From the IMG/VR virus record IMGVR_UViG_3300043112_000103, positions 1-53,046 of that record: DNA of 53,046 nucleotides; one strand, written 5' to 3'. The notes under the pieces are model-generated. The model was not told where the DNA came from and ran no database searches. It saw only the letters and a program-made list of their open reading frames with translations. Position 1 is the first letter of the stretch; every line of letters starts with the position of its first letter. Below, piece by piece: positions 17,175 to 44,350 of this stretch. Source of the DNA: a virus. Lineage: Duplodnaviria > Caudoviricetes. Position numbers and translations under genes: made by a program.

Positions 17175-17500
17175 AATATGGTGAATATGGCGTTCATTTC
17201 ACAAAACTTTTATGAAAATCAGTAAAAAGCGGTTAGAATATATTTTAGCGATTTTGATATTTTTTTCCGAAATCGAAGCTATATTGTGAATATGGCGTTT
17301 CTAATCGGAAACTTTTTTATTTCAATCCTTATACTCTTTTCTTTATTTACTTTTTTCTAAAATAGTTTTAAGATATTAAGGGGATATTAAGGATATGGAG
17401 GTAATAAGGGAAAACTTTAATAAAAATCGCTGAAATATATTCTAAAGGCTTTTTACCGATTTTGATAAAAGTTTTGGGATTTGACCGCCATAAATGGCAT
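17175..17500. repeat. Non-coding repeat element A (candidate origin); 17281-17492 is an inverted copy of 44134-44345 and 17186-17268 an extra partial copy
   Basis: Manual ungapped alignment; ATATGG(C/T)G units; AT-rich core; next to primase-helicase. Confidence 0.75.
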
Positions 17501-17542
17501 ATAATTTTCAGTCAGTAATTTATTTCACAAGCATTATTCCTC

Positions 17543-17571
17543 TTGAAATATATTCTATAATATGTTATACT
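17543..17571 (+). promoter_or_regulatory. Sigma-A-like promoter of replication operon
   Basis: TTGAAA-17-TATACT with extended -10 TG. Confidence 0.65.
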
Positions 17572-17607
17572 CTTAGTAACAGTAAAGAACTCAGAGGAGG
17601 TGGTCTT

Positions 17608-17757
17608 GTGGGTAGATATAGAAGCGTTCGAATAAATAAAGGCAACTTGCGTTACTTTGAAAAGTTGCAACGGTTGGCGGATAAAAAAGAGGTCAGCTTG
17701 AACAATTTAATAAATGAAGCGGTCAAAGAATATACGTCTAGGAGGGAAAATATATAA
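17608..17757 (+). CDS. Ribbon-helix-helix DNA-binding protein
   Basis: GTG after GGAGG; SVRI...EKLQRLA....VSLNNLINEAVKEY. Confidence 0.7.
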   Translation: MGRYRSVRINKGNLRYFEKLQRLADKKEVSLNNLINEAVKEYTSRRENI

Positions 17758-20274
17758 ATGACTTATAACAAAAATATGGGGAAGGACTTTTTGCAGAACT
17801 TATACCAAAACTGCACCGAGGGTTTTGTGGAATTTCGGCTGATAAATGGTCGGGGAAGCAAGCAAAAATTCTTTCAAATCGACAAAGAGAGAAATTTCAT
17901 TGATAAGGCACTAGACTTTGCGGAAAATTATGTTGGCAAATACCATATCTTTTTTGGTATTCAGCCGAGGATACAGAAAAAAGGAACTGATAACTCTGTG
18001 GAAAAGCTGGTTTCTTTTTGGATTGACCTTGACGCTAAAGACCACAGCGGAAGTAAAAAGAAGGCCCGACAAGAATTAAATAATTTTGAACTCGAGCCTT
18101 CTCTCCTTGTAGATAGTGGAAACGGATTTCACGCTTACTGGATTTTACAAAATCCTTGGATAATAAACAGCGAAAGTGACAGAAAAGAAATTACTAGAAT
18201 ATCTAAGGCAATTCATAAAATCACAGGTGGCGACAGCACTTTTAATGTTTCAAGAATTTTAAGGTTGCCCGGGACACCAAATATCAAAAATCCTTACGGC
18301 GACGGAATAACTGAAGATAGTTCTTTGTGGAAGGAATGTAAAATCGTCAGCAACTCTTATCAACAGTACAGCATTAAGGAAATAAAAAATGCAATTCCCG
18401 ATAGTGTGGAGACGGAAGTAAAACCGTTTGAGGTCGATTTTGACAGTCCAAACTTCGATAACAGAATAAATTCTATTTCTGATTTAAGAAAATATGTGGA
18501 TTCTAATGTTATTGAACGGGCTAAAAATATGCCTGCTAAACTTGAAAACGACCGTTCCGCAAATGATTACTGGGTTGCAATCCAGCTTTACGAAGCGGGG
18601 CTGAATGATAAAGAGGTTTTTAATTCCTTTGTATTATTCAAAAATAATAATTATGACGCCGGCCACAAGTTTAAAAGACGTGGGCGAGAGTATCTAGAAC
18701 AGACACTCCCAAAGGCCAAAGGCGAATCAGCAAATTTAAAACTTCCATTATTAATGGATAAAGTCCGGGCGGCAGAAGGTATCGACGAAAAGCTCGAGAT
18801 TGCAAAGGACATTTACCCGATAATAAATTACCTTGAAGCAGGGAAAAAAGACGCCAAAATAAATGAGTTACAGGACGCTTTTGGTGGCAGTAGAATGATG
18901 AAAAAATCTACAATAAAAAAGCTAATAAAAGAGGAACAGACAAAGACAGGACCGGGCCGTTTTTTCACAATCACAAACTCAGGGTCAATGAAATTTGTTC
19001 CGAAGTTACTCGGGGATTATCTTTTGGAAAAGCATTCGATTTTGAATATAGAAAGTTACTTACACTATTATAAAGGAGGAGTTTTTCACGAAAAAGCTCG
19101 TAAACGATTATTGAATGATAAAATAATAACTCTGCTTGGCGAAACTTGGAAAGAAAATTACCGGGAGGAAGCAATCAGTTATATTAGCGACAGAACTTAT
19201 ATTGAAACTGAACAGCTTCCGGAAAATAACGGGATTGTGAATATAAAGAACGGAATGTATGATATAAATAACGAGGAATTGTTACCACATTCTCCCGATT
19301 ATAAATCATTGGCCCAGCTTGATGTAAACTTCGACCCGGAAGCAAAATCTGAACGGTTAGAACAATTTATGGAGGAGGTCTTTCCACCGGAAACACTTGA
19401 TTTAGTTTGGGAACACGCCGGTTATATACTCCTGCCGAACTTTGAATTGAAGCAATTTATTGTGTTCACAGGGGAAGGGAATAACGGAAAGTCAGTTTGG
19501 AGTACAATCCTGCAAAGTATTTTGGGCCGGGATAATTACGCCAACCAGTCTATTCAAGATTTATCGACAAGTAAAAATGCAAGGGCCGAGCTATTCGGAA
19601 AACTGGCTAATATTTACGCTGACTTACCAGCGGAAGCAATCAAGGAAACCGGAACAATTAAAATGCTCACTGGCGGTGATGAAATAACTGCCGAGCGGAA
19701 ATATAAAGACCCGTTCACTTTCAAGAATACGGCTAAACTAATATTTTCAGCGAATACACTTCCGCCGGTTAGAGATTTCAATGAAGCGTTCTTTGATAGA
19801 GTTCATATTGTAAATTGCCCGAATCGGTTTGAAGGCAAGGATGCAGACCCATATTTAATTGACAAATTGACGACAGAAGAAGCAAAATCCGCTTGGCTGA
19901 ATAAGGCAATTGAAGGTGCAAAAAGACTTCTAACAAATAAGAAGTTCAGCACTTCGGCAACTGTGGAAGCTGAAATTGAGAATTATAAATACGCTTCGGA
20001 TTCTGTCAGCGAATTTTTAGGTAACGAATTAATGCATAGCAAAGGTAATTTTGAAACCAAAGAAACTTTATATTCAGCTTATACAAATTGGTGCAAAATA
20101 AACGGAAGGTATCCTGTTAGCAGTCGCAAATTCACTCGCCGGGCTAAAGGGAAGCCAAATAATTTAAAAATTTTCCACCCACAAGTTGGTGGCCAACAGG
20201 TGCAGGCGTGGTCTAATGTCAAATTGACAGATATTGCTTCTAAAAAATACTGTCCGGAAGTGCTTGCAAAATGA
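17758..20274 (+). CDS. Primase-helicase: RepB-type (AEP) primase plus P4/D5-family SF3 helicase
   Basis: WIDLD, DSGNGFHAYW, RILRLPGT; Walker A GEGNNGKS, KMLTGGD.I.AERK, FSAN. Confidence 0.92.
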   Translation: MTYNKNMGKDFLQNLYQNCTEGFVEFRLINGRGSKQKFFQIDKERNFIDKALDFAENYVGKYHIFFGIQPRIQKKGTDNSVEKLVSFWIDLDAKDHSGSKKKARQELNNFELEPSLLVDSGNGFHAYWILQNPWIINSESDRKEITRISKAIHKITGGDSTFNVSRILRLPGTPNIKNPYGDGITEDSSLWKECKIVSNSYQQYSIKEIKNAIPDSVETEVKPFEVDFDSPNFDNRINSISDLRKYVDSNVIERAKNMPAKLENDRSANDYWVAIQLYEAGLNDKEVFNSFVLFKNNNYDAGHKFKRRGREYLEQTLPKAKGESANLKLPLLMDKVRAAEGIDEKLEIAKDIYPIINYLEAGKKDAKINELQDAFGGSRMMKKSTIKKLIKEEQTKTGPGRFFTITNSGSMKFVPKLLGDYLLEKHSILNIESYLHYYKGGVFHEKARKRLLNDKIITLLGETWKENYREEAISYISDRTYIETEQLPENNGIVNIKNGMYDINNEELLPHSPDYKSLAQLDVNFDPEAKSERLEQFMEEVFPPETLDLVWEHAGYILLPNFELKQFIVFTGEGNNGKSVWSTILQSILGRDNYANQSIQDLSTSKNARAELFGKLANIYADLPAEAIKETGTIKMLTGGDEITAERKYKDPFTFKNTAKLIFSANTLPPVRDFNEAFFDRVHIVNCPNRFEGKDADPYLIDKLTTEEAKSAWLNKAIEGAKRLLTNKKFSTSATVEAEIENYKYASDSVSEFLGNELMHSKGNFETKETLYSAYTNWCKINGRYPVSSRKFTRRAKGKPNNLKIFHPQVGGQQVQAWSNVKLTDIASKKYCPEVLAK

Positions 20275-22478
20275 TTTTATTCCTGCTCAATGAAAAAAGC
20301 TATGCAGTAAAAAAAGGAAATAAGGACAAAAACTTACAGGTGCTTGAAGTTCTGATTGAAGAATTTCAGATTGAAAATTATGCTGTGAAGTATTTCGAGG
20401 ACGACGACATTTCGGAAATTGAAGCCAAAGTCATTGTAACAATGGGAGCTGAAATAACTGAAAAGATTTTGGGCCGGGAAATAAAAATCAAAAAAGCTAG
20501 ATTGAATTATTATCACTCGGAGGAATATGACGCATATATTCTTCCAACATTCGCTCCTGGATTTATTTTCCAAGAAACTGATTCTTTCATTGATATGCAA
20601 CAGGACTTTGAAAGGCTGAAAACAATTGACGAAAAGTTTCCGCTGGAGCCGGAAATGCACGTCTTTGAAGACCCGGACTATTGTGCAAAATGTTTGCGGA
20701 CTTTAAACAGGAAATATCCTTTACTTGCTTGTGATATTGAAACAAGCGGATTGGACTGGCAGAACAACTGGATAACTGAACTTGGGATATCTCACGAGGA
20801 AAATAAATCGCTTATCATTCCTCACGAGCTTTTGGAAACTGAAAAAGTTCAGCGAGAACTTCAAATACTTTTCAGCAACCAAAAAACTGAATTTCTGTGG
20901 CAGAATGGTAAATTTGATAGTAAGTTTCTGAAATATATTTATGGGCTTCCGGTCAGACAGGATAGAGATACAATCCTGCAACATTATACACTTGATGAAC
21001 GCCAAGGAACTCACGACTTTACTCGCTTGTCGCAATTATATTTGAACGCTGAAAATTACGAGGAAGAATTTAAAAAGTCAATTCCCAAAGGAGGAAGTTA
21101 CGCTGACGCTCCCGACGATAAGCGGCGTAAATACTTAGCAAAAGATACAGCTTATTTACTGCTTTTGAATAAACTTTTCGACCGGAAAATGAGTGAAACT
21201 GATAAATACTTATATGAAACAGTTCTACTCCCGGCCAGCAACTTTCTGACTGACATTGAAATGAACGGAATAAAACTTGACGAACAGCACTTAGAAAAAC
21301 TTGATAAGAGAATGAAAAAACAGATTAAAGAAATGAAAGCTGACTTGCGGGATTACGTGAGAAGTATCGGTTGGGAGCCGGACGGTTATATTGAAAGAAG
21401 CGGCAGTAAAACTAAACCGGAAAAGTTCAATCCCAACTCTTACCCACAGGTCTTTGATGTAGTTTTCGATTTGCTGGAATTACCGAAGCACAATAATAGG
21501 CGGAGTGCCGACGTTGACGCTCGAAAATACTGGCTGAATAAAGTTTGTGCCGAGGGGTCGCCGCAATATAAATTTGTGAAAAAACTGTCGGATTTTAAAG
21601 GTGTGAAGAAACTTCACTCGACCAACGTTGCCGGTTTTAAAAAGCATATAAAAGAGGACGGCCGGGTTTATACTGACTTCCGTCTTTACGGAACAGTTAC
21701 CGGCAGGCTTTCTTCTAAATCTCCGAATATCCAAAATATTCCTCGGAACAAGGATATTAAAAATCTGTTCACAGCCGAGGAAGGTAATCTATTAATGGAA
21801 ATTGATTACTCACAGGCTGAACTTAGAACAATAGCTTACCTATCCGGCGACGAAAATATGAAAGCAATTTACCAGAAAGGTAGCGATTTACACGACGAAG
21901 TAGCAAAGGAATTTTTTGGCCCGGACTTTACTTCCGAGCAGAGAACTTTTGTGAAAGGAATAAATTTTGGGATACCGTACGGGATTTCAGCTTACAGCTT
22001 GGCCGAGGATTTAGACATTCCGGAAAAAGAAGCACAGAAATATATTGACAAGTGGTTTGCTGAAAAACCGAAGGTAAAGAAATTCATTGACGAATATAAG
22101 GCAAAACCAGCGAAGGGCGAGCCGCTCGAAACTCCTTTTGGCCGCAAGCGGAGATTTGGAGCAATAACTTCAAAGAATAAATGGTTAGTACAGCGGGAAG
22201 CAATTAACTTTCCGGTGCAATCTGTGGCAAGTGATTTGACATTACTTTCAGCGGTAAGGCTGAATCCAAAATTGGACGGGCTGGCCCGAATTGTAAATCT
22301 CGTTCACGATAGTATTGTAATGGAAGTTCCGGAAGAAAATGTAGAAAAAGTGGGCCGGATTGCTAAAAAAGTAATGGAGGAAACTCCCGGGCTTTATCTC
22401 GATAATTTAGATATTCCGTTTACAGCGGACGTTGAAGTTGGCAAAAGCTGGGGAAAACTTAAAGAACTTGACTTATAG
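20271..22478 (+). CDS. polA: Family A DNA polymerase with 3'-5' exonuclease and degenerate N-terminal UDG-like domain
   Basis: DIET, NGKFD, TGRLSS..PN.QNIP, DYSQAELR, K.INFG..YG, VHDS; N-terminal IVTMG...LPTFAP. Confidence 0.93.
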   Translation: MILFLLNEKSYAVKKGNKDKNLQVLEVLIEEFQIENYAVKYFEDDDISEIEAKVIVTMGAEITEKILGREIKIKKARLNYYHSEEYDAYILPTFAPGFIFQETDSFIDMQQDFERLKTIDEKFPLEPEMHVFEDPDYCAKCLRTLNRKYPLLACDIETSGLDWQNNWITELGISHEENKSLIIPHELLETEKVQRELQILFSNQKTEFLWQNGKFDSKFLKYIYGLPVRQDRDTILQHYTLDERQGTHDFTRLSQLYLNAENYEEEFKKSIPKGGSYADAPDDKRRKYLAKDTAYLLLLNKLFDRKMSETDKYLYETVLLPASNFLTDIEMNGIKLDEQHLEKLDKRMKKQIKEMKADLRDYVRSIGWEPDGYIERSGSKTKPEKFNPNSYPQVFDVVFDLLELPKHNNRRSADVDARKYWLNKVCAEGSPQYKFVKKLSDFKGVKKLHSTNVAGFKKHIKEDGRVYTDFRLYGTVTGRLSSKSPNIQNIPRNKDIKNLFTAEEGNLLMEIDYSQAELRTIAYLSGDENMKAIYQKGSDLHDEVAKEFFGPDFTSEQRTFVKGINFGIPYGISAYSLAEDLDIPEKEAQKYIDKWFAEKPKVKKFIDEYKAKPAKGEPLETPFGRKRRFGAITSKNKWLVQREAINFPVQSVASDLTLLSAVRLNPKLDGLARIVNLVHDSIVMEVPEENVEKVGRIAKKVMEETPGLYLDNLDIPFTADVEVGKSWGKLKELDL

Positions 22479-22521
22479 AATATATTGTAATATAATATGA
22501 TTAAGGAAGGAGGTTAAAAAT

Positions 22522-22743
22522 ATGATTAATTATAATGGTAAAAAATATTACAATCCAAAGCAGGCTGTTGCTAATTTCCCGGTTGCTGAAAGCACACTTT
22601 ATTACTGGGTAAGTAACGGCGAAATTGAATTGCTGGATATTGACGAATTTTGCGAGAACAATCCGCTTGACAAAGACGATTTAATTGCTAAATACTATAT
22701 TCCGGAAGATATTCTAGTGGAAAAATCGGAAAGGACTGAATAA
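22522..22743 (+). CDS. Small HTH (excisionase/MerR-like) protein
   Basis: YY.P.QA...F.V..STLY.WV..G.I pattern. Confidence 0.55.
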   Translation: MINYNGKKYYNPKQAVANFPVAESTLYYWVSNGEIELLDIDEFCENNPLDKDDLIAKYYIPEDILVEKSERTE

Positions 22744-22746
22744 CAA

Positions 22747-23184
22747 TTGCTGATATTAAGTATTGACCCGGGCGAAACTTCCGGATTTTCCCTAATGAAA
22801 CATTCAGAGAAATTAAATTATAATAAAAAGGACAGGGATTTGATTGTGAACGTTGGGGAAAAATCTGGATATAAAGGTTTCGACAGTTTGATTGAGAATT
22901 ATGAGCCGGACTTAATTGTATATGAAGAATTTAAATTGTATCCTTGGAAGGCAAAACAAAAATCTTGGAGCACATTCCCGACCGTTGAGGTAATTGGTGT
23001 TCTCAAATATATTGCCGAGCAAAAGAATGTTAAAATAATCGGGCAGGGAGCGGACACCAAAACTTATTTTGATGATAAAAAGCTGAAATGGTGCGGCGTT
23101 TATAAAGGATATTCCACACACGAACGGGACGCTTTAAGACACGGATTTTACTTTATTGAATTTGGAGGTGAATCTTATGAGTAA
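22747..23184 (+). CDS. RuvC-like Holliday junction resolvase
   Basis: ILSIDPG.TSG, PD.IVYEEF, H.RDA. Confidence 0.75.
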   Translation: MLILSIDPGETSGFSLMKHSEKLNYNKKDRDLIVNVGEKSGYKGFDSLIENYEPDLIVYEEFKLYPWKAKQKSWSTFPTVEVIGVLKYIAEQKNVKIIGQGADTKTYFDDKKLKWCGVYKGYSTHERDALRHGFYFIEFGGESYE

Positions 23185-23320
23185 TTATGTTGAAGGCAAT
23201 AAGAATACTATATTCGATTATGTTAATTTTAAAAAAGAGCAGTATAAATTACTAAATCAGAGAGTTAAAGAAACAGTTTATAATTATTATAGTAAGAATG
23301 AAAGGGGTGATTCTGATTAA
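23177..23320 (+). CDS. Hypothetical 47-aa protein (not in track)
   Basis: GGAGGTG site plus ATG. Confidence 0.55.
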   Translation: MSNYVEGNKNTIFDYVNFKKEQYKLLNQRVKETVYNYYSKNERGDSD

Positions 23321-23504
23321 TACTTTAGAAGCAACCGTAACTGAAATTTTATCAGACCCGATTAAAAAGAATTGTGCCGACCACAGTTGGTGGGAAGTTA
23401 AAATTAAATATAGTTGTTACGGCAGAATACATTCCGGGGTAGAGGTTTTTGAATTTCTTGACTTGGCACAGGATTTAAGAGTGGGTGATAAAATTTGGCG
23501 GTAA
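23298..23504 (+). CDS. Hypothetical protein (start uncertain)
   Basis: ORF fills gap before helicase. Confidence 0.55.
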   Translation: MKGVILINTLEATVTEILSDPIKKNCADHSWWEVKIKYSCYGRIHSGVEVFEFLDLAQDLRVGDKIWR

Positions 23505-25156
23505 AAAACTTTTTAGAATATGAAACCACACTTGACGGAAGACCAAAGAAACTAAGGCTGAATTGTGAAACTAAATATATGGCAGGCGTTCTTAATATTG
23601 CCGGTGCTAGACGGCAAAAGGACAATTCAATAACGTTGCCGCCCGACCCTTTTAACGCCGAGCAGTTATTGAAGTATATCAAAGATTTAGAACTCGGAGA
23701 AATGGCGGAAAATTGGTATAACAGATATCTTGAAAAAAGAGAAAAACTTGCTAAAATAAAAGAGCAGAAAAGAAGCGAAAAAGTACAAGCAAATTCTGAT
23801 AAATTATATAATTATCAGAGCGTGGACGTTGAATTTTTGAAGGAAGGCAAGCGAACTATCGAAGCAAGCGAAATGGGAACGGGTAAAACTGTAATCGCAA
23901 TTAGTAACGCTGTGGAAACCGGGGCTGAAAATATCTTGATTGTCGCTCCTAAATCAGTTTTATATAACTGGGAAAAAGAAATAAAATTGTGGGATAAAAA
24001 CTGCGGTAATGTAGTTGTAACTGACGGGAGCAGGAAGCAACGGACTGAACTTCTAAAACAGCCCGGGAAATATAAATTGATTAATTATGCAATGCTCCGG
24101 AATAACAAATATCCTTACCTATTTGAGCAGGAATGGGATTTGGTAATTTTTGATGAAGCACACAGATTGAAGGGCCGGAATACTGCACAGTCAGAAGGGG
24201 CTGAAAATCTGCAAGCTAAGAATATTAATATGCTCACAGGGTCGCCAATTCCTAACCACCCGCACGAGCTGTGGCATTTATTGCATATTTTATACCCGAG
24301 AAGATTTAGCAGTTACTGGCAATTCGTAGATAGATTTTGTGTAACGGAGGAAAACTTTTTTTCACCAACTCCGGATATTGTAGGGGTTAAAAATGAAAAA
24401 TATTTGAAGGAAATTTTGACACCAATAATGATAAGAAATAAAAAGGAAAATGTTCTATCAGATTTACCACCGAAAACTTATCAAGAAGTAGAGCTTGAAC
24501 TTGAAAAGAAACAGCGGCGAATATATGACGGAATGGAAGAAGATATGCTGACGTTTATTAACGGCGAAGCCCATAAAATCAGCAATTCTTTAGGCAAGCT
24601 GATAAGGTTACAGCAAATTACCTTATCCCCAAAAATACTGGATTCTGAATATAAAGGAAAAGGTATCAAGACTAAAGCACTTCTTGACTTGCTAGAAGAT
24701 ACAGACAAAAAAGTAGTCGTTTTCAGTTGGTTTAAGACTTATATTGAAATTCTAGACGAGGAATTACAGAAGGCCGGATATAAAACTGCTGTGGTTACCG
24801 GCGGAAAATCCTCCGAAGAACGAGGAAAAGCTGAAAAAGATTTTTGGGAAGACCCGGAAGTCAAAGTATTTCTCGGAACAATCGGCTCGGCCGGTGAGGG
24901 AATGAATTTACAGGTCGCCGACACTCTGATATTTATGGATAAGTCTTGGACGCCGGCCCAAAATAGACAGGCCGAGGACAGAATACACCGGGTTGGCCAA
25001 AAAGGAAACGCCACAATTATTTCATTCGTTGCTAAAAATACAATTGACGTTGACAAGGAAATCACTTTAGCCAACAAGGAACAGGTTATAAGTAAAGTAA
25101 TGTCAATGGAAAATACTGCTAAAAATTTATTAGCAAGAACAGCCGGGAATATGTAA
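23495..25156 (+). CDS. SNF2-family SF2 helicase
   Basis: EMGTGKT, DEAH, LTGSP, EGMNLQ, QAEDRIHRVGQ. Confidence 0.92.
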   Translation: MAVKNFLEYETTLDGRPKKLRLNCETKYMAGVLNIAGARRQKDNSITLPPDPFNAEQLLKYIKDLELGEMAENWYNRYLEKREKLAKIKEQKRSEKVQANSDKLYNYQSVDVEFLKEGKRTIEASEMGTGKTVIAISNAVETGAENILIVAPKSVLYNWEKEIKLWDKNCGNVVVTDGSRKQRTELLKQPGKYKLINYAMLRNNKYPYLFEQEWDLVIFDEAHRLKGRNTAQSEGAENLQAKNINMLTGSPIPNHPHELWHLLHILYPRRFSSYWQFVDRFCVTEENFFSPTPDIVGVKNEKYLKEILTPIMIRNKKENVLSDLPPKTYQEVELELEKKQRRIYDGMEEDMLTFINGEAHKISNSLGKLIRLQQITLSPKILDSEYKGKGIKTKALLDLLEDTDKKVVVFSWFKTYIEILDEELQKAGYKTAVVTGGKSSEERGKAEKDFWEDPEVKVFLGTIGSAGEGMNLQVADTLIFMDKSWTPAQNRQAEDRIHRVGQKGNATIISFVAKNTIDVDKEITLANKEQVISKVMSMENTAKNLLARTAGNM

Positions 25157-26919: not shown

Positions 26920-26935
26920 ATCATTGTGAAAAACG

Positions 26936-26965
26936 CTGGTAAAGTCCTTTAGAATATGTTATAAT
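26936..26965 (+). promoter_or_regulatory. Repeated early promoter, copy 4
   Basis: CTGGTA-N18-TATAAT. Confidence 0.8.
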
Positions 26966-26997
26966 GGTATTAACATAAGAAAAGGGAGGAACTATAA

Positions 26998-27336
26998 ATG
27001 AAAAAACTTACAGTAAGCCCACAGGATTTTGTCGAGCCGGAACTAGAAATAATCAGAATGAAGAATAGAAAGATTGAGGAACTGAAACAGAACGCTTGGA
27101 AATCAGATATCGACCCGGAAGTTTATTACCCGGAAGGCGTTGAAGAAATCGCCGCACACTTAGTCAATTACGAACGGGCCTTAGAAATACTACACGACCT
27201 GTTTAGAATATACAGAAATGTCGCCACTAGACTGGCCGAGGTAAATAATGAAGAGAGAATTGAAAAGCTGGAAAATATGGCAAGAGATAAAGAACGGGAA
27301 ACAGAACTTAAAGTAAGAAAACTTCTCAAATTCTAA
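26998..27336 (+). CDS. Hypothetical helical protein
   Basis: GGGAGG site; monocistronic cassette. Confidence 0.75.
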   Translation: MKKLTVSPQDFVEPELEIIRMKNRKIEELKQNAWKSDIDPEVYYPEGVEEIAAHLVNYERALEILHDLFRIYRNVATRLAEVNNEERIEKLENMARDKERETELKVRKLLKF

Positions 27337-27374: not shown

Positions 27375-27394
27375 GTGATTTTCTTTGAAAAACG

Positions 27395-27424
27395 CTGGTA
27401 ATTTGCGTTAGAATATGTTATAAT
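27395..27424 (+). promoter_or_regulatory. Repeated early promoter, copy 5
   Basis: CTGGTA-N18-TATAAT. Confidence 0.8.
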
Positions 27425-27454
27425 TAGACCATAAGATAAAAGGAGGGAAAGAAA

Positions 27455-27682: not shown

Positions 27683-27694
27683 TCGTGAATAACA

Positions 27695-27724
27695 CTGGCA
27701 ATATTCATTAGAATATGTTATAAT
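27695..27724 (+). promoter_or_regulatory. Repeated early promoter, copy 6
   Basis: CTGGCA-N18-TATAAT. Confidence 0.8.
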
Positions 27725-27755
27725 CAGAGTAGTAAGATAAAAGGAGGGAAAGAAA

Positions 27756-27968
27756 ATGAAAACGAAATATAGTAAAGTAAAAAAGGGAAAATATAACATA
27801 ATTAATGAAGAAACCGGCGAAAAAATTGGCAGAGTTTGGCTGAAACCGAGGAGCAGAGAATGGGCTTCTAGTTTTAACAAAGTAGGAATAGTTGCCCGAC
27901 ACGCTAACAGCAGGAAACAGGCAACGGAAATGGGAGTTTCGCTTTACAAAAGCAAGCAGAATTTATAA
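27756..27968 (+). CDS. Hypothetical basic protein
   Basis: AGGAGGG site. Confidence 0.75.
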   Translation: MKTKYSKVKKGKYNIINEETGEKIGRVWLKPRSREWASSFNKVGIVARHANSRKQATEMGVSLYKSKQNL

Positions 27969-32727: not shown

Positions 32728-32880
32728 ATGAATAATAAGGAAACTTGCAGACAGTGTAATAAAGAATTTGAATATTTAGATATTTACCCACACACAGAAG
32801 GCTTTTGTTCTGTTGCTTGCCACGAAAAGTGGAAGAAAGAATATGATAATTATGTTGACCCATACAATGCTTATCATTAA
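32728..32880 (+). CDS. Small zinc-finger-like protein
   Basis: CxxC...FCSxxC; GGGAGG site. Confidence 0.6.
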   Translation: MNNKETCRQCNKEFEYLDIYPHTEGFCSVACHEKWKKEYDNYVDPYNAYH

Positions 32881-33046
32881 AGGAGGTCAAAAATGACTTG
32901 CATGATTTGTGGAAAAACTTGGGTAACTGATGATAGTGTTTGGGAATGGGGTTTATGTGAAAAATGCTCAAAAAAGAAAAAGGAGGTCAAAAATGACTTG
33001 CGTTTATGTGAAAAATGCTCAAAAAAGAAAAAGGAGGTCAAAAATG
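32879..33046 (+). repeat. Direct repeats (45 bp x2; AGGAGGTCAAAAATG x3)
   Basis: 32951-32995 identical to 33002-33046. Confidence 0.9.
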
Positions 33047-33051
33047 GATAA
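32893..33051 (+). CDS. 52-aa zinc-finger peptide with duplicated C-terminus
   Basis: MTCMIC...LCEKCSKKKKEVKN repeated twice; AGGAGG site. Confidence 0.6.
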   Translation: MTCMICGKTWVTDDSVWEWGLCEKCSKKKKEVKNDLRLCEKCSKKKKEVKNG

Positions 33052-33124
33052 CATTTTTGGTTGGGTTTTAGTAATAGGTGCATTTATCATAATGGCTGCT
33101 ACAAGGGAGTAAAGGAGGAAAATT

Positions 33125-33322
33125 ATGACTGAACGTAAAAAAGGCAGTATATTAATTGATATTGATAGTTCAGCATTTGAAGTTATACAAGTTGCAAAAT
33201 GCAGACAATGTGATGGATTAAAATATTATGGAAAAGATTTAGAAACTGGCGTATTTGGTTGGTGGCACGAAGCTGAAGTGGTTGGAACTGAAGAAGAAGT
33301 TTATAAAGGAGGTAAAAAATGA
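33125..33322 (+). CDS. Hypothetical protein
   Basis: AAGGAGG site. Confidence 0.65.
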   Translation: MTERKKGSILIDIDSSAFEVIQVAKCRQCDGLKYYGKDLETGVFGWWHEAEVVGTEEEVYKGGKK

Positions 33323-33489
33323 AAGCTGATGATTGTAAAGTTAAATGTCCGGAGTGCGGATATGAAGATTACCCGAGAATTACAAAAAGTTATGAACAGG
33401 ATGACCGGGACGGTAATAGGGGAATTGAAATTACTTTTATTGAATGTGCTAATTGCGGAGCTGATTTGAAAGGGGTGCTTGAAAATTAA
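33319..33489 (+). CDS. Zinc-ribbon protein (56 aa; not in track)
   Basis: CPECG...CANCG; AGGAGG site. Confidence 0.65.
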   Translation: MKADDCKVKCPECGYEDYPRITKSYEQDDRDGNRGIEITFIECANCGADLKGVLEN

Positions 33490-38535: not shown

Positions 38536-38566
38536 GGGCTGGCCATTCTTGGCTGGCCCGTTCTTT
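38536..38566 (+). terminator. Intrinsic terminator
   Basis: GGGCTGGCCA/TGGCTGGCCC stem then T-rich tail. Confidence 0.65.
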
Positions 38567-38606
38567 AAAAGTTTTTTAGAATATATTACAATTTCTTTAA
38601 AAAACG

Positions 38607-38636
38607 CTGGTAATTTGCCCGGAAGTTTGCTATGAT
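38607..38636 (+). promoter_or_regulatory. Repeated early promoter, copy 7 (lacks AGAATAT box)
   Basis: CTGGTA-N18-TATGAT. Confidence 0.7.
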
Positions 38637-38668
38637 GGTGTTAGTAAAGAAAGAGGGGGTGAAAAATA

Positions 38669-38737
38669 ATGAAAAAACAACTAACAGCAGAAGAAAAAAA
38701 GAACTTTAACTTAGGCGAATATCTATTAAATAACTAA
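38669..38737 (+). CDS. 22-aa peptide MKKQLTAEEKKNFNLGEYLLNN
   Basis: GAGGGGGTG site; FNLGEYL shared with 42178 ORF. Confidence 0.6.
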   Translation: MKKQLTAEEKKNFNLGEYLLNN

Positions 38738-38763
38738 ACCAAAAAATCGAGGAGGAATAAAAA

Positions 38764-38910: not shown

Positions 38911-38914
38911 AAAA

Positions 38915-39040: not shown

Positions 39041-39141
39041 CTTTAAATTTGAGATTTGAACTTTGAAACCAAAACATAACTGCTGGGCAACAGGCAAAAC
39101 TGCCCGAAATATTTTTAAAAAAATCAAAGGAGGAATTTAAA

Positions 39142-39546: not shown

Positions 39547-39782
39547 TGAATAAACAAAAACTTTTAAAAGAAGTCAGAAAAGCGGTCGATTACAACGAGC
39601 CACTTTTTATGAAAGGCGACCTTGAAGAAATGGTTTATGTGTATTCGCCGGAAGTTGAGCAGGAAATTTGGGATCCATTTTATGATTATACCGGGCTTTA
39701 TCCAGTCGACCCACTTGAAGAATATTCAAAGGAAACTTTGCTAAAATTTGTGAAAAACTTCCGGGAACAAGTGGAAAAATAA
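39546..39782 (+). CDS. Hypothetical acidic protein
   Basis: AGGAGG site. Confidence 0.7.
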   Translation: MNKQKLLKEVRKAVDYNEPLFMKGDLEEMVYVYSPEVEQEIWDPFYDYTGLYPVDPLEEYSKETLLKFVKNFREQVEK

Positions 39783-39826
39783 ATCAGAAAAAACTGGCGG
39801 GATTCGGAAAAAACTTCCGTTTTCCG

Positions 39827-39856
39827 CTGGCTTTATCTATTAGAATATGTTATAAT
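39827..39856 (+). promoter_or_regulatory. Repeated early promoter, copy 8
   Basis: CTGGCT-N18-TATAAT. Confidence 0.8.
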
Positions 39857-39888
39857 GGTATTAACATAAGAAAGAGGGGGAAATAAAA

Positions 39889-40092
39889 ATGAAAATTTGG
39901 AAGGCAAGCATATCTGATAGAAGGAATAACATAGACGACGACATTTACGCTTTGACTAAAGAGGAACTTGACAGCATAGGATTTAACGGCGTAGTTACTT
40001 GGGTCGGCCAAATCACAGGTGAACAGTTTTTAGAAGAATGTAACTGGGGATATAAAAAAGTAAGAACAGCCGTAGAAAAGGAGCTGAAATAA
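39889..40092 (+). CDS. Hypothetical early protein
   Basis: GAGGGGG site. Confidence 0.7.
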   Translation: MKIWKASISDRRNNIDDDIYALTKEELDSIGFNGVVTWVGQITGEQFLEECNWGYKKVRTAVEKELK

Positions 40093-40247
40093 TGAGAAAA
40101 TTTAAAATAATTTTAACTGGCGACAGCGAGATTGAACAGGAATATACAGTTTCAGCCGAGAATGAAGCGGCGGCTTATGCGAAGGCGTACGAATACCGGA
40201 AACATAATTACGGTACAAAAATAAAATCAGTAAAGGAGGTGAAATAG
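40092..40247 (+). CDS. Hypothetical 51-aa protein (not in track)
   Basis: AAGGAG site, TAATG coupling. Confidence 0.6.
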   Translation: MRKFKIILTGDSEIEQEYTVSAENEAAAYAKAYEYRKHNYGTKIKSVKEVK

Positions 40248-40248
40248 G

Positions 40249-40527
40249 ATGTTACGTAAAGAAATACTCACTGAACTGGAAAAAGAAACAGCGGAAGGAA
40301 GGCTGAAATATAGTTTTACGCTGGGCGAACTTTATGATATTGACCCGGAAACAGCCAGGAAAATTGAAAAGGAATTTAAAATGGGCGTTGATGATAAATT
40401 GGTAATTATTATTACTGACTGGACTATTTGTGGTTTTGCTGACTGGGAAGAAATGGTACCACTATTTGCTGAAAAATACGAACATTTCGATACTGAAACT
40501 CTGAAAAGTTACTTGGAGGTGATTTAA
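40249..40527 (+). CDS. Hypothetical acidic protein
   Basis: AGGAGGTG site. Confidence 0.7.
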   Translation: MLRKEILTELEKETAEGRLKYSFTLGELYDIDPETARKIEKEFKMGVDDKLVIIITDWTICGFADWEEMVPLFAEKYEHFDTETLKSYLEVI

Positions 40528-40606
40528 AATTAAACCAAACTGCCTGTGTGCAATAGCACCGTTTATTGAAGCACTATTTATTACAAATATAAGGGAGGAA
40601 TTTAAA

Positions 40607-41122
40607 ATGAAAATTAATGTTTATGAAATAGGGACACGTGTTAGGCTAAACAAAGATGTGCAGAATGATTATTACAAATTTGAAGAAGGAGAGATTGGAA
40701 AAGTAATTGAAACTGAAATTTACGAATCAGTGAAAATGGTGAAAGCAGAATTTGAAGGTGGTCGGAAATTGGTAACAGTGGTCGATAATTTAGAAATAAT
40801 AACCGGCTTTGTGGAAGGCGACGAGGTCGTTTTTGAGAATAGAAAATATGAGGTTTGGGGAACTTCCGAGGATTGTGTGGCCATAAAAAGGCCGGGCGAT
40901 TACAGGTTGGCGAAGGTGGGAGATTTAAAGTTGGCCCGGAATAGGTTTAACTTGAAAACAGGCGACCAAGTGGAATTGGTTACAGGCACAACTCATAGAA
41001 TTTTAGGCGGCGGTTTGGATACTTCCGACCAAGTTTATAAATACTTTACCAAGAATTTAGAAATTGGCTCACTTGGAATAGTCTGGGCCAATCAAATTAA
41101 AGAAATAACTTACTTGAAGTAA
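40607..41122 (+). CDS. Tandem SH3/KOW-like beta-barrel protein
   Basis: Three units: YEIGTRV, FVEGDEV, LKTGDQV. Confidence 0.6.
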   Translation: MKINVYEIGTRVRLNKDVQNDYYKFEEGEIGKVIETEIYESVKMVKAEFEGGRKLVTVVDNLEIITGFVEGDEVVFENRKYEVWGTSEDCVAIKRPGDYRLAKVGDLKLARNRFNLKTGDQVELVTGTTHRILGGGLDTSDQVYKYFTKNLEIGSLGIVWANQIKEITYLK

Positions 41123-41151
41123 TTGGGATATTTAAAATAGGAGGGTTTTAA

Positions 41152-41385
41152 TTGCTAAATAAAATTATAGATTGGTTTTCAAATCTCGGAACTAATGAGA
41201 ATAATAGTAGTGATGAAGGTATTGTGTTTTATACGAGTAAGTATGATGTCAAAGAAATGTTTGAGAAAGAAAAGGAAGCACATGTCTTAGTCTGTTTCTC
41301 ACTTTCTGATGAGGGTTGCCAAGACAATGATTATTATACCAAAATTAAAATAATAGAAATGAAGGAGGATTCTGATGAAGAATGA
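41152..41385 (+). CDS. Hypothetical acidic protein
   Basis: TTG after GGAGAGG. Confidence 0.55.
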   Translation: MLNKIIDWFSNLGTNENNSSDEGIVFYTSKYDVKEMFEKEKEAHVLVCFSLSDEGCQDNDYYTKIKIIEMKEDSDEE

Positions 41386-41572
41386 CGTTATAATCGAGCC
41401 GGGAATGAAAGTTACTTATAAAACTGAATTTGCAGAGGAAAAAGGAATTTTGAAAAGTTTAAGTGGCAATGAACACGCTTTCGTCGTTTACAATTGTAAC
41501 GGCGACTGGGATAGTTACGAAAATTATACAGCCGAAAGAACTAGAATTTGCGATTTAGAAGAGGGGTGGTAA
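41375..41572 (+). CDS. Hypothetical protein
   Basis: AGGAGG site. Confidence 0.7.
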   Translation: MKNDVIIEPGMKVTYKTEFAEEKGILKSLSGNEHAFVVYNCNGDWDSYENYTAERTRICDLEEGW

Positions 41573-41637
41573 GGCCCATAAACGCAAATGGATTTGTGTG
41601 CCGGGCCAACCACCCGGCTTTCTTCTTTATGGGCCTT
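41571..41637 (+). other. Predicted three-way-junction RNA structure / terminator
   Basis: 12-bp perfect outer stem enclosing two hairpins. Confidence 0.55.
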
Positions 41638-41681
41638 GCTTAAAAGAAGTATTTTTTATTGTGAAAAAACTTCCGATTATA

Positions 41682-41711
41682 TTAGCAATACCTGTTAGAA
41701 TATGTTATAAT
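41682..41711 (+). promoter_or_regulatory. Repeated early promoter, copy 9
   Basis: TTAGCA-N18-TATAAT, TTAGAATATG. Confidence 0.75.
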
Positions 41712-41757
41712 GGTCTTAGTAAGGAAGAAGGACATAAAAACCGAGGGGGAAATTAAA

Positions 41758-42012
41758 ATGAAAAACACAATGTTAGATAACTTAGAAGCAGAACTTGAAA
41801 AGGAAGGAATCACAGACTTCCGAGTTGACGGTGATATGGACGGATATACAGTTACAATCGGAGGCGGCTACCGACAGGTTTTAGTCGATATCCCAAACGA
41901 CTCCGAGTGGCACTATTTGGAAGTTTACAATCCAAATAAAGACACTTTTCATTATACAGCGAAGCGGAAAGGTTTAAAATCCGTAATCAATTACATTTAC
42001 AAGCACCTGTAA
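41758..42012 (+). CDS. Hypothetical early protein
   Basis: GAGGGGG site before ATG 41758. Confidence 0.7.
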   Translation: MKNTMLDNLEAELEKEGITDFRVDGDMDGYTVTIGGGYRQVLVDIPNDSEWHYLEVYNPNKDTFHYTAKRKGLKSVINYIYKHL

Positions 42013-42115
42013 TTGAAACTGAAATTTGAAATTGAATAACATAACGGAGCTGGGCCACTCCTTAAACGGCCCAAAAAATTTTCTTGAAAAAAACTTGAAA
42101 AACTTATGAAAAATG

Positions 42116-42145
42116 CTGGCTTTATTGGTTAGAATATGCTACAAT
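42116..42145 (+). promoter_or_regulatory. Repeated early promoter, copy 10
   Basis: CTGGCT-N18-TACAAT. Confidence 0.8.
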
Positions 42146-42177
42146 GGTAGTAGTAAATAAGAGAGGGGCGAAAAATA

Positions 42178-42438
42178 ATGAGAGATTTTAACTTAGGAGA
42201 ATACTTAAATAACAACGGGAAAGAGAAAATGAAGGAACGGGAAAGCAAAAGAACAGCCGACAGCGAACTGATAGATAAATATAAAAATGAAATTGAAAGT
42301 AAGATAGGGGATTTTGGAATTTGTGAGGTTTTTGAAGACGGCGAAGTAATTGTAGAAAATGAGTACGGCGAACTTTATTCAGTATTCGAATCATCAATAA
42401 TCGACAAACTATATATAAGAAGAAAGGAGGAATATTAA
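42178..42438 (+). CDS. Acidic early protein starting FNLGEYL
   Basis: GAGGGG site. Confidence 0.7.
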   Translation: MRDFNLGEYLNNNGKEKMKERESKRTADSELIDKYKNEIESKIGDFGICEVFEDGEVIVENEYGELYSVFESSIIDKLYIRRKEEY

Positions 42439-42439
42439 A

Positions 42440-42670
42440 ATGTTAGGGATTAGAACAGGGAATGATTGGCAACAAATTTTAAGAGAGGAACACGCAGAAC
42501 AGCGGCGAATGAGAAATGAACGTTGCCGGGAATTAGAGGAAAGTTTGGAGAACTGCCGGGCCATTTATGGAAGGCTCGAGGACGCAGGTTTCAAGGACGA
42601 GGAAGTTTTCACAAGGCTGGATAATATCGAAGAAAGTCTGCTGGAAGTTCTAAATAAATATAACGGTTGA
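42440..42670 (+). CDS. Hypothetical helical protein
   Basis: AGGAGG site. Confidence 0.7.
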   Translation: MLGIRTGNDWQQILREEHAEQRRMRNERCRELEESLENCRAIYGRLEDAGFKDEEVFTRLDNIEESLLEVLNKYNG

Positions 42671-42700
42671 GTTTTTAAAAAAATCAAAGGGGGAAACATA

Positions 42701-43015
42701 ATGAAAGAAGTAGTTAGTAAGGAATTTGTTTTGACACCGGAAGCGGCAGAATTGGCATTTAAAAGACATGATTCAATCGTAGTGGCCATTTGCGACAATG
42801 AAATATATAAACTAAATACTGTGAAAATGAATTTAGGTGATAATTACGAATATGCTTTTATTGCAATTAACGGTAAGACTTGGCTTAATGGAAGTTCCAA
42901 GGATATTTACCAAATGATTGAGCAATGTCAGAGTTATTGCAGACTGCTGGTTTTTGAAAATGAAATAGAATATTTCGAATGGCTCGCCAAAAAGGGAAAG
43001 GGGATTGTTAAATAA
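42701..43015 (+). CDS. Hypothetical protein, paralog of C-half of 34105..34674
   Basis: Shared motifs; AGGGGG site. Confidence 0.7.
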   Translation: MKEVVSKEFVLTPEAAELAFKRHDSIVVAICDNEIYKLNTVKMNLGDNYEYAFIAINGKTWLNGSSKDIYQMIEQCQSYCRLLVFENEIEYFEWLAKKGKGIVK

Positions 43016-43350
43016 TGAAAAAATTAGATTACATTTTAGAAGTGCATGACTTGGTGCGGGAACTTTACCGAGATTATAATGTGTTGGGAATATCAGAGGA
43101 TAGTATTCATTTGAAGATTGGTGAGTTTTTGAAGCACTTCGGGAATGAAATCGAAAGTTATTCTTGGGTCTTTGACGAGGATAGAGTTTCCGGAGGGGCT
43201 TTTCACTTATACTCCTATTATCAAGGAATGAAATTTGTCGGAGTTTTCAATGATTATAATATGAATGAATATTTCCGCTTTGTGAACAATAATGAAAAAG
43301 TTGGCAACTTACGGGAAGCAATGCAAATCAAATTTAAGGAGGTAAATTAA
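43015..43350 (+). CDS. Hypothetical protein
   Basis: TAATG coupling. Confidence 0.65.
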   Translation: MKKLDYILEVHDLVRELYRDYNVLGISEDSIHLKIGEFLKHFGNEIESYSWVFDEDRVSGGAFHLYSYYQGMKFVGVFNDYNMNEYFRFVNNNEKVGNLREAMQIKFKEVN

Positions 43351-43351
43351 A

Positions 43352-43609
43352 TTGAAAAACAATAATTTTGCAGATAACAAGCATTTAGAAAAACTTGGGG
43401 CGGCCGGAAAAACTGAATTGCTTTGCCCGGAATGTGGCTGGGCGACTACTATCAAGAATATTGATTTTAAAACTATAATTGTAATGCACCGAATGCAAAG
43501 AATGAGTGGTTTTGAATCTATACAGGCCAATTTGGATTCGGAGGACCGGACTTATTTCTGTCCGGTGTGTGGTGAGGGAAGTATTGCTAAAGAATGGGAG
43601 GTGGCATAG
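43352..43609 (+). CDS. Zinc-ribbon protein
   Basis: CPECG...CPVCG; TTG after AGGAGG. Confidence 0.7.
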   Translation: MKNNNFADNKHLEKLGAAGKTELLCPECGWATTIKNIDFKTIIVMHRMQRMSGFESIQANLDSEDRTYFCPVCGEGSIAKEWEVA

Positions 43610-43610
43610 A

Positions 43611-43907
43611 TTGAAATATATTACAAAAGAGGGCGTTTTGCTACTTAAAGCATACAGGATAGACGAGCTGGAAAAATTCCCAAAGGCTGTTGCAATAAAA
43701 AAACTGTCAGAGTTTCAGCCGTTCACTAAGGGTGATTTCACAGAGGAACAAATCATTCAGTTCAGCAACGCAAATGAGTATCTATACACCAAAAAGGGCG
43801 AGCATATTCCTCTAATATACACAGTTGGCCCGTCGGGAAGTATCTGTGCAATGAATTTGAAAGTGGCCGGAGAGCAAATTCCGGTGAAAATTCAGAGCAA
43901 ATTTTAA
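43611..43907 (+). CDS. Hypothetical protein
   Basis: TTG after GGGAGG. Confidence 0.55.
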   Translation: MKYITKEGVLLLKAYRIDELEKFPKAVAIKKLSEFQPFTKGDFTEEQIIQFSNANEYLYTKKGEHIPLIYTVGPSGSICAMNLKVAGEQIPVKIQSKF

Positions 43908-43967
43908 TAAATATGGCCCATTTTATATAAAATGAAATAAAATGAAATAAAATTTTATATAAATTCA

Positions 43968-43995
43968 GCTCCCGTTTTACACAGCGGGAGTTTTC
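43968..43995 (+). terminator. Intrinsic terminator ending early region
   Basis: GCTCCCG/CGGGAGT stem plus T-run. Confidence 0.7.
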
Positions 43996-44121
43996 TATTT
44001 CCAAAATATGTCTGCTTTATGTTAAATTCGTTGGATATTGTGCGAACTTTGTACAAGGTTTTAAGGCGTTTTATATAAAAAGGGCCATAATTACTTTGTA
44101 CTTCATTTCACTTTCGAAAAA

Positions 44122-44350
44122 ATATATGGCAAATATGGAGGTCAAATCGGAAAACTTTTTTAAAAATGAGGGAAAAGGCGTTAGAACATATTTTAGCGAT
44201 TTTTAAAAAAGTTTTCTATTATTACTTCCATATTCCTTATATGTACTTTCTTTTCTAAAACTATTTTAAAATAAAGTACATATAAAAATAAGTATTTAGT
44301 TTGAAATAAAAAAGTTTTCGAAAAGAAACGCCATATTCGCCATATTTTTT
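44122..44350. repeat. Non-coding repeat element B (inverted copy of 17281-17492)
   Basis: About 167/212 identical, ungapped, by manual count. Confidence 0.85.

Follow-up and report, generated by a model that had tools for sequence, protein, structure and literature searches.

Two loci at the borders of the early and late arms

The DNA considered here, called the window throughout, is a 53,046-nt record of a virus of the Caudoviricetes (Duplodnaviria), IMG/VR record IMGVR_UViG_3300043112_000103. The ends of the record overlap by 152 nt, of which 151 are identical, and the genome is therefore a 52,894-bp circle or is circularly permuted. Almost every gene lies on the plus strand. An early arm opens with an operon for a small ribbon-helix-helix (RHH) protein, a primase-helicase and a family A DNA polymerase, and a late arm carries the packaging and structural genes. 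Two long non-coding stretches in the lists of open reading frames (ORFs), ~17048-17607 and 43908-44621, are the two borders between these arms. Each contains an array of boxes of ~45 nt: locus A (17175-17508), with four boxes, and locus B (44118-44350), with three. The features of these two loci, which are the subject of this article, are as follows.

17281-17508: arm 1 of an inverted repeat, in locus A
44118-44345: arm 2 of the inverted repeat, in locus B
17174-17224, plus strand: box A1, the outer left box, found in locus A only; AATATGGTG and AATATGGCG, ~10 nt, then AAAACTTTT (E 4.6e-11)
17276-17325, plus strand: box A2 (E 1.4e-9)
17381-17432, plus strand: box A3, a weaker copy (E 1.9e-8)
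17454-17506, minus strand: box A4, the inverted box of locus A (E 4.1e-10)
44121-44169, plus strand: box B1, the inverted box of locus B and counterpart of A4 (E 1.9e-10)
44194-44246, minus strand: box B2, counterpart of A3 (E 2.6e-8)
44298-44350, minus strand: box B3, counterpart of A2 (E 1.3e-10)
17321-17384: AT-rich core of locus A, 78 % AT
44238-44297: AT-rich core of locus B, 84 % AT

An earlier note on this DNA had reported that the reverse complement of 17281-17492 matches 44134-44345 at about 167 of 212 positions without gaps. That figure was reproduced exactly, and the repeat extends further, to 17281-17508 and 44118-44345 (179/228 identical, 79 %, ungapped), with an E-value of 6.4e-51 for the two arms in a BLAST comparison within the record. 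Beyond these limits identity drops to chance (9-11/30 and 20-21/60). The 49 differences over 228 nt comprise 17 transitions and 32 transversions, with no indel, and the longest exact run common to both arms is 17 nt. Other parts of the description also held: both copies fall within the non-coding stretches, they lie half a genome apart (arcs of 26,609 and 25,829 nt; centre distance 0.507 of the circle), and the AT content of their cores exceeds that of the genome (63 %). The lack of any indel over 228 nt at 21 % divergence agrees with the suggestion that spacing is constrained, and the boxes are better kept than the core. The repeat is thus as the note described it; what it had left unresolved is the larger palindromic box module, including an extra unit at 17175-17279.

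Anatomy of the box arrays

Each box consists of two tandem 9-mers (consensus AATATGGYG), ~10 variable nt and then AAAACTTTT. The E-values listed above come from an nhmmer profile built from the seven boxes, and matches to those seven are therefore given by construction; with this profile, no further box was found in the window at E<=10. Direct boxes are spaced 102, 105 and 104 nt apart, or ~ten helical turns, and the inverted box starts 125 nt from the neighbouring box in A and in B alike. Box A2 is identical to box B3 at 35 of 40 positions. The layout of both loci implies that B is A minus its leftmost unit. This extra unit of A (17175-17279) is an inverted copy of the rightmost unit, 17186-17258 being 86 % complementary to 17420-17492. 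Because repeated units stand in opposite orientations, each locus is a large imperfect palindrome of 235-335 bp; single-strand folds of the whole loci reach z -11.4 for A and z -7.2 for B.

The cores stand out by their low nearest-neighbour stability. Of 52,794 windows of 100 nt across the genome, none is less stable than 44199-44298, in the core of B; the core of A ranks 10th among non-overlapping 100-nt windows and 6th among those of 60 nt (17318-17377). Identity between A and B is 88, 78 and 82 % in the boxes, 79 % between the inverted boxes and 70 % in the AT core.

Constraint on the boxes

Five of the seven boxes contain an ATG-started ORF of 12 codons (M-[AE]-[FV]-x-x-[EQ]-N-F-[FYN]-x-N-x), for example 17187-17225 and, on the minus strand, 44232-44194. 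These ORFs have no Shine-Dalgarno sequence at a normal distance. Mean entropy among the boxes is 0.70, 0.73 and 0.66 at codon positions 1, 2 and 3, which amounts to no codon periodicity, and the frame is lost in the related module of contig L021, described below. A coding reading of the boxes was rejected on these last two grounds, and the 12-codon ORF is most likely a by-product of the repeated DNA.

Searched for structured RNA, the loci gave no Rfam match at the gathering threshold and no transfer RNA. When the seven boxes were folded on both strands, 13 of the 14 folds were no better than shuffles (z -1.35 to +1.29), the exception being the plus strand of box A2 (z -2.5). A reading of single boxes as hairpins of the single-strand initiation (ssi) type was rejected because of these shuffle-level folds. 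Taken with the presence of both box orientations at each locus, the same result speaks against the proposal of the earlier note that each locus is one strand-specific origin. The lack of codon periodicity and of single-box hairpins together indicates that the constraint acts on duplex DNA. Constraint of this kind, on the duplex sequence and its spacing, is characteristic of an array of protein-binding sites.

A related module beside the primase operon of a relative

Relatives were sought in IMG/VR and in JGI metagenomes with the primase-helicase, and few close ones were found. One of them, L021, is a metagenomic contig of 1,751 nt whose primase N-terminus is identical to that of the window at 164 of 261 positions (63 %). 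It has a 330-nt element between an unrelated divergent gene and the RHH-primase operon. Box matches in this element are weak (E 0.27-4.6), lying on the plus strand at 403 and on the minus strand at 523, 623 and 732; their layout is like that of locus A, with three direct boxes and one inverted box at spacings of 109, 100 and 120 nt. The element also has outer inverted arms (63 nt, 78 %), a 205-nt direct repeat at 85 %, an AT-rich centre and a single-strand fold of z -6.95. In gapped local alignments judged against dinucleotide shuffles, the plus strands of B and L021 score 57 (z 14.6), and A scores 33 and 30 against the two strands of L021 (z 7.3 and 5.6). A three-way alignment of A, B and L021 has its identity concentrated in the boxes. 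Ungapped identity between A and L021 is at the null level, the homology being visible by gapped local alignment and the box profile alone. These alignments mark the module as one that has long accompanied the primase operon under constraint.

Compared with locus A, the L021 module is flipped relative to the primase gene, and the orientation of the module to its neighbours is thus not fixed. This further weakens the idea of strand-specific ssi sites. It also means that the inverted relation between A and B, on which the earlier note had built, need not be functional, and that relation is probably incidental. Locus B is closer to the L021 module than A is, which is unlike a decaying duplicate.

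Other searches were directed at the DNA itself. When the phage collection was searched at the nucleotide level, neither 17000-25000 nor locus A gave a match, and exact and degenerate box patterns gave, among the matches listed from IMG/VR, unrelated single matches or none. In the nearest cultured phage, Oceanotoga phage vB_OteS-UFV02 (OR420712.1; primase 34 %), no inverted repeat of at least 40 nt was found in the first 50 kb, and a literature search found no paper on its genome. This phage has four to five tandem 11-bp repeats, TTTGAGTTATG, at 44026-44094, together with an inverted copy and a distant copy, with 44324-44337 involved. These repeats lie within a 931-nt divergent intergenic region beside packaging genes, ~25-28 kb from the primase.

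Locus B in other samples

Twelve sequencing runs containing the sequence were found, all of them in the form of contigs. Their metagenomes are labelled oil-field, shale-gas or subsurface, and no RNA run is listed among them; in run X7, parts of the stretch are uncovered. Contigs of X3, X4 and X5, three runs that belong to as many other studies, pass through B in colinear order on their way from the end of the early arm to the late arm, with 43 differences in 3,829 nt (X3), 56 in 3,505 nt (X4), and 81 plus 27 gap letters in 1,343 nt (X5). Among the variants listed (40 of 280), B has no indel, flank indels being listed at 43897, 43902 and 44076, and five variant positions lie inside B. Two of these restore consensus motifs: 44131 A>G gives GGCGAATATGG in box B1, and 44187 C>T gives TTAGAATAT. 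Further B-bearing relatives were sought with the ParB-like protein encoded beside B, which led to a contig that begins inside the gene (L098) and to four that are unrelated in DNA (L099-L102); with the last early ORF, which led to none; and by a genome-contig search, which led to nothing closer than 37 %. Relatives in the tail and terminase genes have structural genes ~70-89 % identical in nucleotides, are mosaic, and are without the ParB region and the boxes.

Colinearity across B bears on another proposal of the earlier note, namely that A and B are recombination sites that invert the 26.6-kb early arm. The arm is bracketed by two inverted homologous sequences, and the L021 module stands in the other orientation, both as inversion would have it. 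Against this, no recombinase, integrase or invertase family was found in 42 ORFs scanned with Pfam and PHROGs (many ORFs of <100 aa and several structural ORFs were unscanned). The two arms agree at 79 % of positions and share no exact run above 17 nt, which makes them poor substrates for general recombination. The three contigs retain a single order across B, although rare isomers would be invisible in contigs and locus A is not covered, and a flipped arm would oppose the early genes to the direction of the late arm. Inversion is, on this evidence, scarcely credible. A 21-nt "joint" 43694/44255 in X3 and X4 was discounted, the contigs being foreign ones with 6,012 other letters between.

The same comparisons bear on the possibility that the module is a relic or a selfish duplication. 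On this reading, a palindromic piece with some early-promoter ancestry was duplicated a single time, or spread as a miniature inverted-repeat element does, and is by now drifting, with no role of its own, either at B or at A and B alike. Such an origin would account for the decayed early-promoter-like sequence in the units, for the terminal inverted boxes, two opposite copies and flipped module in L021, for the absence of a fourth unit from B, and for a strain-level substitution density in B that is not reduced among the variants listed. It fits poorly with 228 nt free of indels at 21 % divergence and with boxes better kept than the core, with synteny beside the primase operon and kept spacings at 63 % primase identity, and with B being the copy most like the L021 module. 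Searches of the window, of 929 kb of loci and of two later sets (979 kb and 1.3 Mb) turned up no additional copy, and no target-site duplication is evident by eye. A relic of this kind is improbable.

The primase-helicase as candidate binder

Three genes of the replication operon beside locus A are as follows.

17608-17757, plus strand: 49-aa RHH protein, first gene of the replication operon, with a GTG start behind GAGGAGGTGG
17758-20274, plus strand: primase-helicase, 838 aa, with D5_N, a DUF5906 superfamily 3 (SF3) helicase and a Pox_D5 C-terminal region
20271-22478, plus strand: family A DNA polymerase with 3'-5' exonuclease, by family match

A profile of the primase-helicase and eight homologues matches PDB entry 7OLA with an E-value of 1.3e-32 (positions 379-792 against chain positions 326-744). 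7OLA is PriRep5 of the staphylococcal pathogenicity island (SaPI) SaPI5, a self-loading initiator helicase with a winged helix at its C terminus that recognises iterons to either side of an AT-rich centre; the study describes at least two iterons per side, in opposite directions, in origin fragments of 318-367 bp (PMC9371898). In the window protein, the C-terminal 138 residues are the most diverged among the close homologues P0002-P0004 (59-65 % compared with 74-90 % elsewhere), as expected of a specificity domain. Residues 701-838 match Pox_D5 (E 2.5e-6) and, weakly, an RFX winged helix (E 0.025). The N-terminal primase has sub-threshold matches to RepB_primase (E 0.025; 14.9 bits, cutoff 24.3) and RepB_primase_C (E 0.11) in the right order, and a PDB search with residues 1-330 gave no match.

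The RHH protein matches a PHROG of Arc-like repressors (E 1.8e-4) and, weakly, RHH_5 and RHH_1. Between the RHH protein of the window and that of L021, no alignment was obtained even at E<=100. Since these proteins are unrelated while the boxes and the primase are conserved, the comparison points to the primase-helicase, and away from the RHH protein, as the binder. The primase-helicase is a candidate for the initiator that binds the boxes.

Genes beside locus B suggest a different binder. A ParB N-terminal-domain gene and an ATPase gene start 270 nt to the right of B, and the boxes are repeated and phased. The loci might accordingly be centromere-like partition sites bound by these proteins, or DNA-organising sites for a protein that bridges A and B. 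The ParB-like protein matches only ParB_N, with no DNA-binding helix-turn-helix found, and the ATPase matches ABC_tran/AAA and no ParA-type family. Moreover, the L021 module lies beside a primase operon, and neither the ParB region nor the boxes are present in relatives that have the terminase and structural genes in common with the window. A partition role is very improbable.

Promoters and other elements around the loci

Both loci are flanked by transcription signals.

17039-17090, minus strand: early-type promoter for three leftward small genes
17543-17571, plus strand: early promoter (TTGAAA-17-TATACT with TG) serving the RHH-primase operon, 35 nt to the right of A4
43967-43992, plus strand: intrinsic terminator at the end of the early arm, 126 nt to the left of locus B
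44565-44593, plus strand: promoter with 12/12 matches to the sigma-70 consensus, for the ParB-like, terminase and structural arm, 215 nt right of B3

Locus A thus lies between divergent promoters. The early promoters form a family of ~57 nt (…AAAACGCTGGTAAT…TTAGAATATGTTATAATGG…) with twelve copies, all within 16.5-42.2 kb.

Copies 1-4: 16541-16592 (minus strand), 17039-17090 (minus strand), 17536-17592, 25199-25276
Copies 5-8: 26930-27007, 27389-27445, 27689-27766, 30283-30339
Copies 9-12: 38606-38678, 39821-39898, 41676-41732, 42110-42187

Each copy has two overlapping -10 candidates, TAGAAT and TGnTATAAT, and the conserved spacer suggests that a factor besides sigma may be involved. The spacer of every early promoter repeats the box core GAATATG and the tail motif TTAGAATAT; the latter occurs 16 times in the genome, including the 12 early promoters and two copies in locus A. 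Near locus B, a 12-nt palindrome, TTTTATATAAAA, is present at 43921-43932, 44069-44080 and 44521-44532, and solely there (three copies compared with 0.16 expected from mononucleotide shuffles). The early terminator has a copy on either side, and the third copy is 33 nt upstream of the late promoter's -35; the palindrome is a candidate operator for a late-switch regulator.

These surroundings raise the possibility that the boxes are operators or enhancer-like sites at which a phage or host transcription factor acts on the early/late borders, shutting off early promoters or timing the late promoter, for example, with no role in replication. Locus A is placed between divergent early promoters and locus B between the early terminator and the late promoter, box motifs recur in the early-promoter spacers, and a separate palindrome is confined to the surroundings of B. 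RHH proteins bind tandem sites; an RHH gene adjoins A, and the tandem 9-mers resemble such sites. The outer units contain promoter-like pieces (TTAGAATAT) and promoter-like hexamers, and in L021 both outward promoters have a -35 hexamer that an outer box overlaps or adjoins, which together leave room for a regulatory role. Yet the distance from box to promoter varies, from ~0-5 nt in L021 through 35 and 90 nt at A to 215 nt at B. The flipped module of L021 leaves the inner boxes without a fixed orientation to promoters, the boxes are conserved beside RHH proteins that have no sequence relationship to each other, and the other early promoters are without any box. A purely regulatory array is unlikely, though by no means negligible.

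A putative replication origin present twice

The reading that we favour, tentatively and with a probability somewhat short of even, is that A and B are copies of one cis-acting module of protein-binding duplex DNA, an iteron-type replication origin that is present twice. It draws on the homology of the primase-helicase to PriRep5, on both box orientations around a meltable core, and on the module beside the primase operon of a relative. In tying origin function to the D5/SF3 primase-helicase, the earlier note had proposed what is still the best fit to the sequence; its picture of one strand-specific origin per locus is not supported.

Several findings weigh against an origin. GC skew has no inflection at A or B, and B is seen solely in strains 1-6 % diverged and in no distant relative. 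Among the variants listed, the density of differences in B in X3 (5/228 nt) is not below that of the whole contig (43/3,829). The promoter-like content of the outer units and the -35 contacts in L021 would also suit a regulatory role. The winged helix is at most a candidate fold, with a mean pLDDT of 55 in an AF2 model of the C-terminal 150 residues; a single-sequence PDB search with the C-terminal region was empty, and the RFX match reaches only E 0.025. SaPI iterons are 5-6 nt long and number 6-12 per origin, in contrast to the 45-bp composite boxes, three or four per locus, found here, and the SaPI origin described is single and directly downstream of rep (PMC9371898), a place occupied here by the polymerase gene, whose start at 20271 overlaps the end of the helicase gene at 20274. 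Among relatives of the primase, L019, L020 and L022 (37-41 %) have no such array upstream of it, and the 110 nt upstream of the promoter are without a box in L005 (79 %), the closest relative. Fragments of this 79 %-identity phage (L005/L018 and L006) end in A/T-rich sequence 391 nt upstream of the primase, with no box. Positions 1-110 of L005, at the start of the contig and at the place expected for locus A, are A/T low-complexity sequence including a poly-A run. This A/T-rich start may reflect a genuine difference, or else an assembly that broke off at a repeat.

Under an origin model, the PriRep5/P4-alpha-like primase-helicase would recognise the boxes through its fast-evolving C-terminal region, load on both sides of the AT-rich core, melt the core and prime there, and the adjacent family A polymerase would extend the primers. 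Locus A, with four boxes, divergent early promoters and the RHH-primase-polymerase operon beside it, would be the primary origin. Divergent transcription favours melting between promoters, according to the twin-domain model of supercoiling, and early transcription on both sides of A would be expected to have this effect. Locus B, with three boxes, 0.51 of the circle away and between the early terminator and the late promoter, would be a second origin or an auxiliary site. As an auxiliary site it might act as an initiator-bound fork barrier, as proposed for oriR of phage SPP1, or as a looping partner, on the model of crr of phage P4.

It is possible, though distinctly unlikely, that A and B are coupled, the bound initiator synapsing both across the circle or blocking forks at B. 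Were this the case, the genome would be split into early and late halves of nearly equal size, and the state of replication would set the switch from theta to concatemer synthesis and perhaps that from early to late expression. More generally, few origins have been mapped in the many phages whose replication uses a family A polymerase and a primase fused to an SF3 helicase, and the two loci give sequence-defined predictions of the DNA bound by the helicase, of the place where melting starts and of the effect of a second copy on forks. If A and B are origins, palindromes of 45-bp composite boxes phased at ten helical turns would represent an origin design new to SF3 primase-helicases, with its duplicate half a genome away. 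If the boxes are regulatory instead, the modules mark the early/late borders of this phage group.

Other features of the genome

Beyond the replication operon, the early arm, which begins at the promoter 17543-17571 and ends at the terminator 43967-43992, encodes an SNF2 helicase, a PD-(D/E)XK nuclease, an AAA_24 ATPase, an SSB-like protein, thymidylate synthase, ribonucleotide reductase and dUTPase. Within it, the start AAAGGAGGTCAAAAATGAC… of a gene at 32879-33061 occurs in three tandem copies, including a 51-nt tandem duplication at 94 %. A 292-nt piece of small early ORFs, 33032-33323, is 94 % identical in three viral contigs (L234 at 1466-1757; L235 and L236 at 5758-6049) whose terminase genes are merely ~72 % identical to those of the window; it looks like a recently exchanged mosaic piece.

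The late arm opens with the ParB-N-domain gene, followed by the ATPase gene, the small and large terminase (Terminase_3) and, further on, an SPP1-like portal, Dit and tail genes, to the end of the arm at 16176. The true start of the ParB-N-domain gene (44622-45164) is the TTG at 44622, behind the ribosome-binding site AAGGAGGTGG. The longer ORF that reads from the ATG at 44406 is probably spurious, and its extension (44406-44621) contains a perfect TTGACA-17-TATAAT promoter. The ATPase gene, with the ABC_tran/AAA matches mentioned above, spans 45083-45850. The tail module 2754-14718 is 89 % identical over 12 kb to a 42.3-kb IMG/VR record classed as a provirus, which has no ParB region, locus B or boxes; the contigs in question are L231 and L232 (records G001, the one classed as a provirus, and G002). 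The structural arm is thus common to a possibly temperate relative.

Between the end of the late arm and locus A, 16283-17047 holds three small minus-strand genes, driven by early-type promoters. Two of them, 16283-16516 and 16642-16806, are paralogues that both start MKVKDL… and have a 47-nt repeat at 79 %, with no family match for either. The paralogues and the third gene are the sole leftward genes and diverge from locus A.

Comparison with known systems

In phage P4, the C-terminal domain of the primase-helicase binds the same iterons at ori and at the distant crr and loops the DNA between them. The crr consists of ~120-bp direct repeats and lies 4.5 kb from ori, and the P4 iterons are 8-mers. 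This layout is resembled by the ~105-nt repeated units here, as a likeness of arrangement. Both sites, crr and ori, are named in PMC9942202.

The SaPI origins (PMC9371898; bioRxiv 10.64898/2026.10.17.759575) are tied to the window by the helicase homologue, over the helicase and the start of the C-terminal domain. They also span a few hundred base pairs and have repeats in opposite orientations on both sides of an AT-rich centre (PMC9371898). Half of the SaPI iterons lie on each side of that centre (PMC9371898), whereas the boxes here are spaced ~105 bp apart and contain two 9-mers each. The modules here lie 250 nt upstream and 24 kb downstream of the primase-helicase gene, the second copy being half a genome away.

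The ssi sites of plasmid RSF1010, to which the strand-specific proposal appealed, are two inverted repeats of ~40 nt on complementary strands within one oriV, with a hairpin at nt 7-27 (PMC8567376). Both orientations within one locus are found here as well, a likeness that itself counters one strand-specific site per locus, as does the placing of both ssi sites together in one oriV; the likeness of the window primase to RepB' is, moreover, sub-threshold. Each ssi site forms its own hairpin, unlike the single boxes here, and RSF1010 has separate RepC iterons and a separate RepA helicase (PMC8567376). The archaeal plasmid pRN1 offers a parallel in gene order, with the orf56-orf904 operon encoding a small repressor and then a primase/SF3-helicase replication protein (PMC4234260). 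It differs in its cis requirements, which are 64 bp upstream of the operon and 166 bp downstream, and the abstract does not mention a second distant copy (PMC4234260).

Phage SPP1 differs from the window phage in its replication proteins, in the positions of its origins and in their sequence. It uses the origin-binding protein gp38, the loader gp39 and the DnaB-type helicase gp40 (PMC6316719), and no DnaB-type helicase or loader family was found among the 42 window ORFs scanned. Its oriL lies inside gene 38, and the two copies are ~13 kb apart on a 44-kb circle (PMC6316719). No sequence likeness links its origins to loci A and B. In organisation the two are alike: SPP1 is a pac-type siphovirus, and the window phage has an SPP1-like portal and Dit; oriL and oriR are two distant loci of repeats with an AT-rich unwinding element; and one copy lies by the replication genes, the other being intergenic in the late region (PMC6316719). 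These two SPP1 origins are of like organisation, and the one in the late region has been proposed to stall forks when bound by the initiator, and to trigger the switch from theta to sigma replication and concatemer synthesis (PMC6316719; PMC3485210). If locus B is a fork barrier or a looping partner, the idea proposed for SPP1 oriR would extend to an unrelated replisome, and the self-loading helicases of the SaPIs would be linked to the biology of lytic phages.

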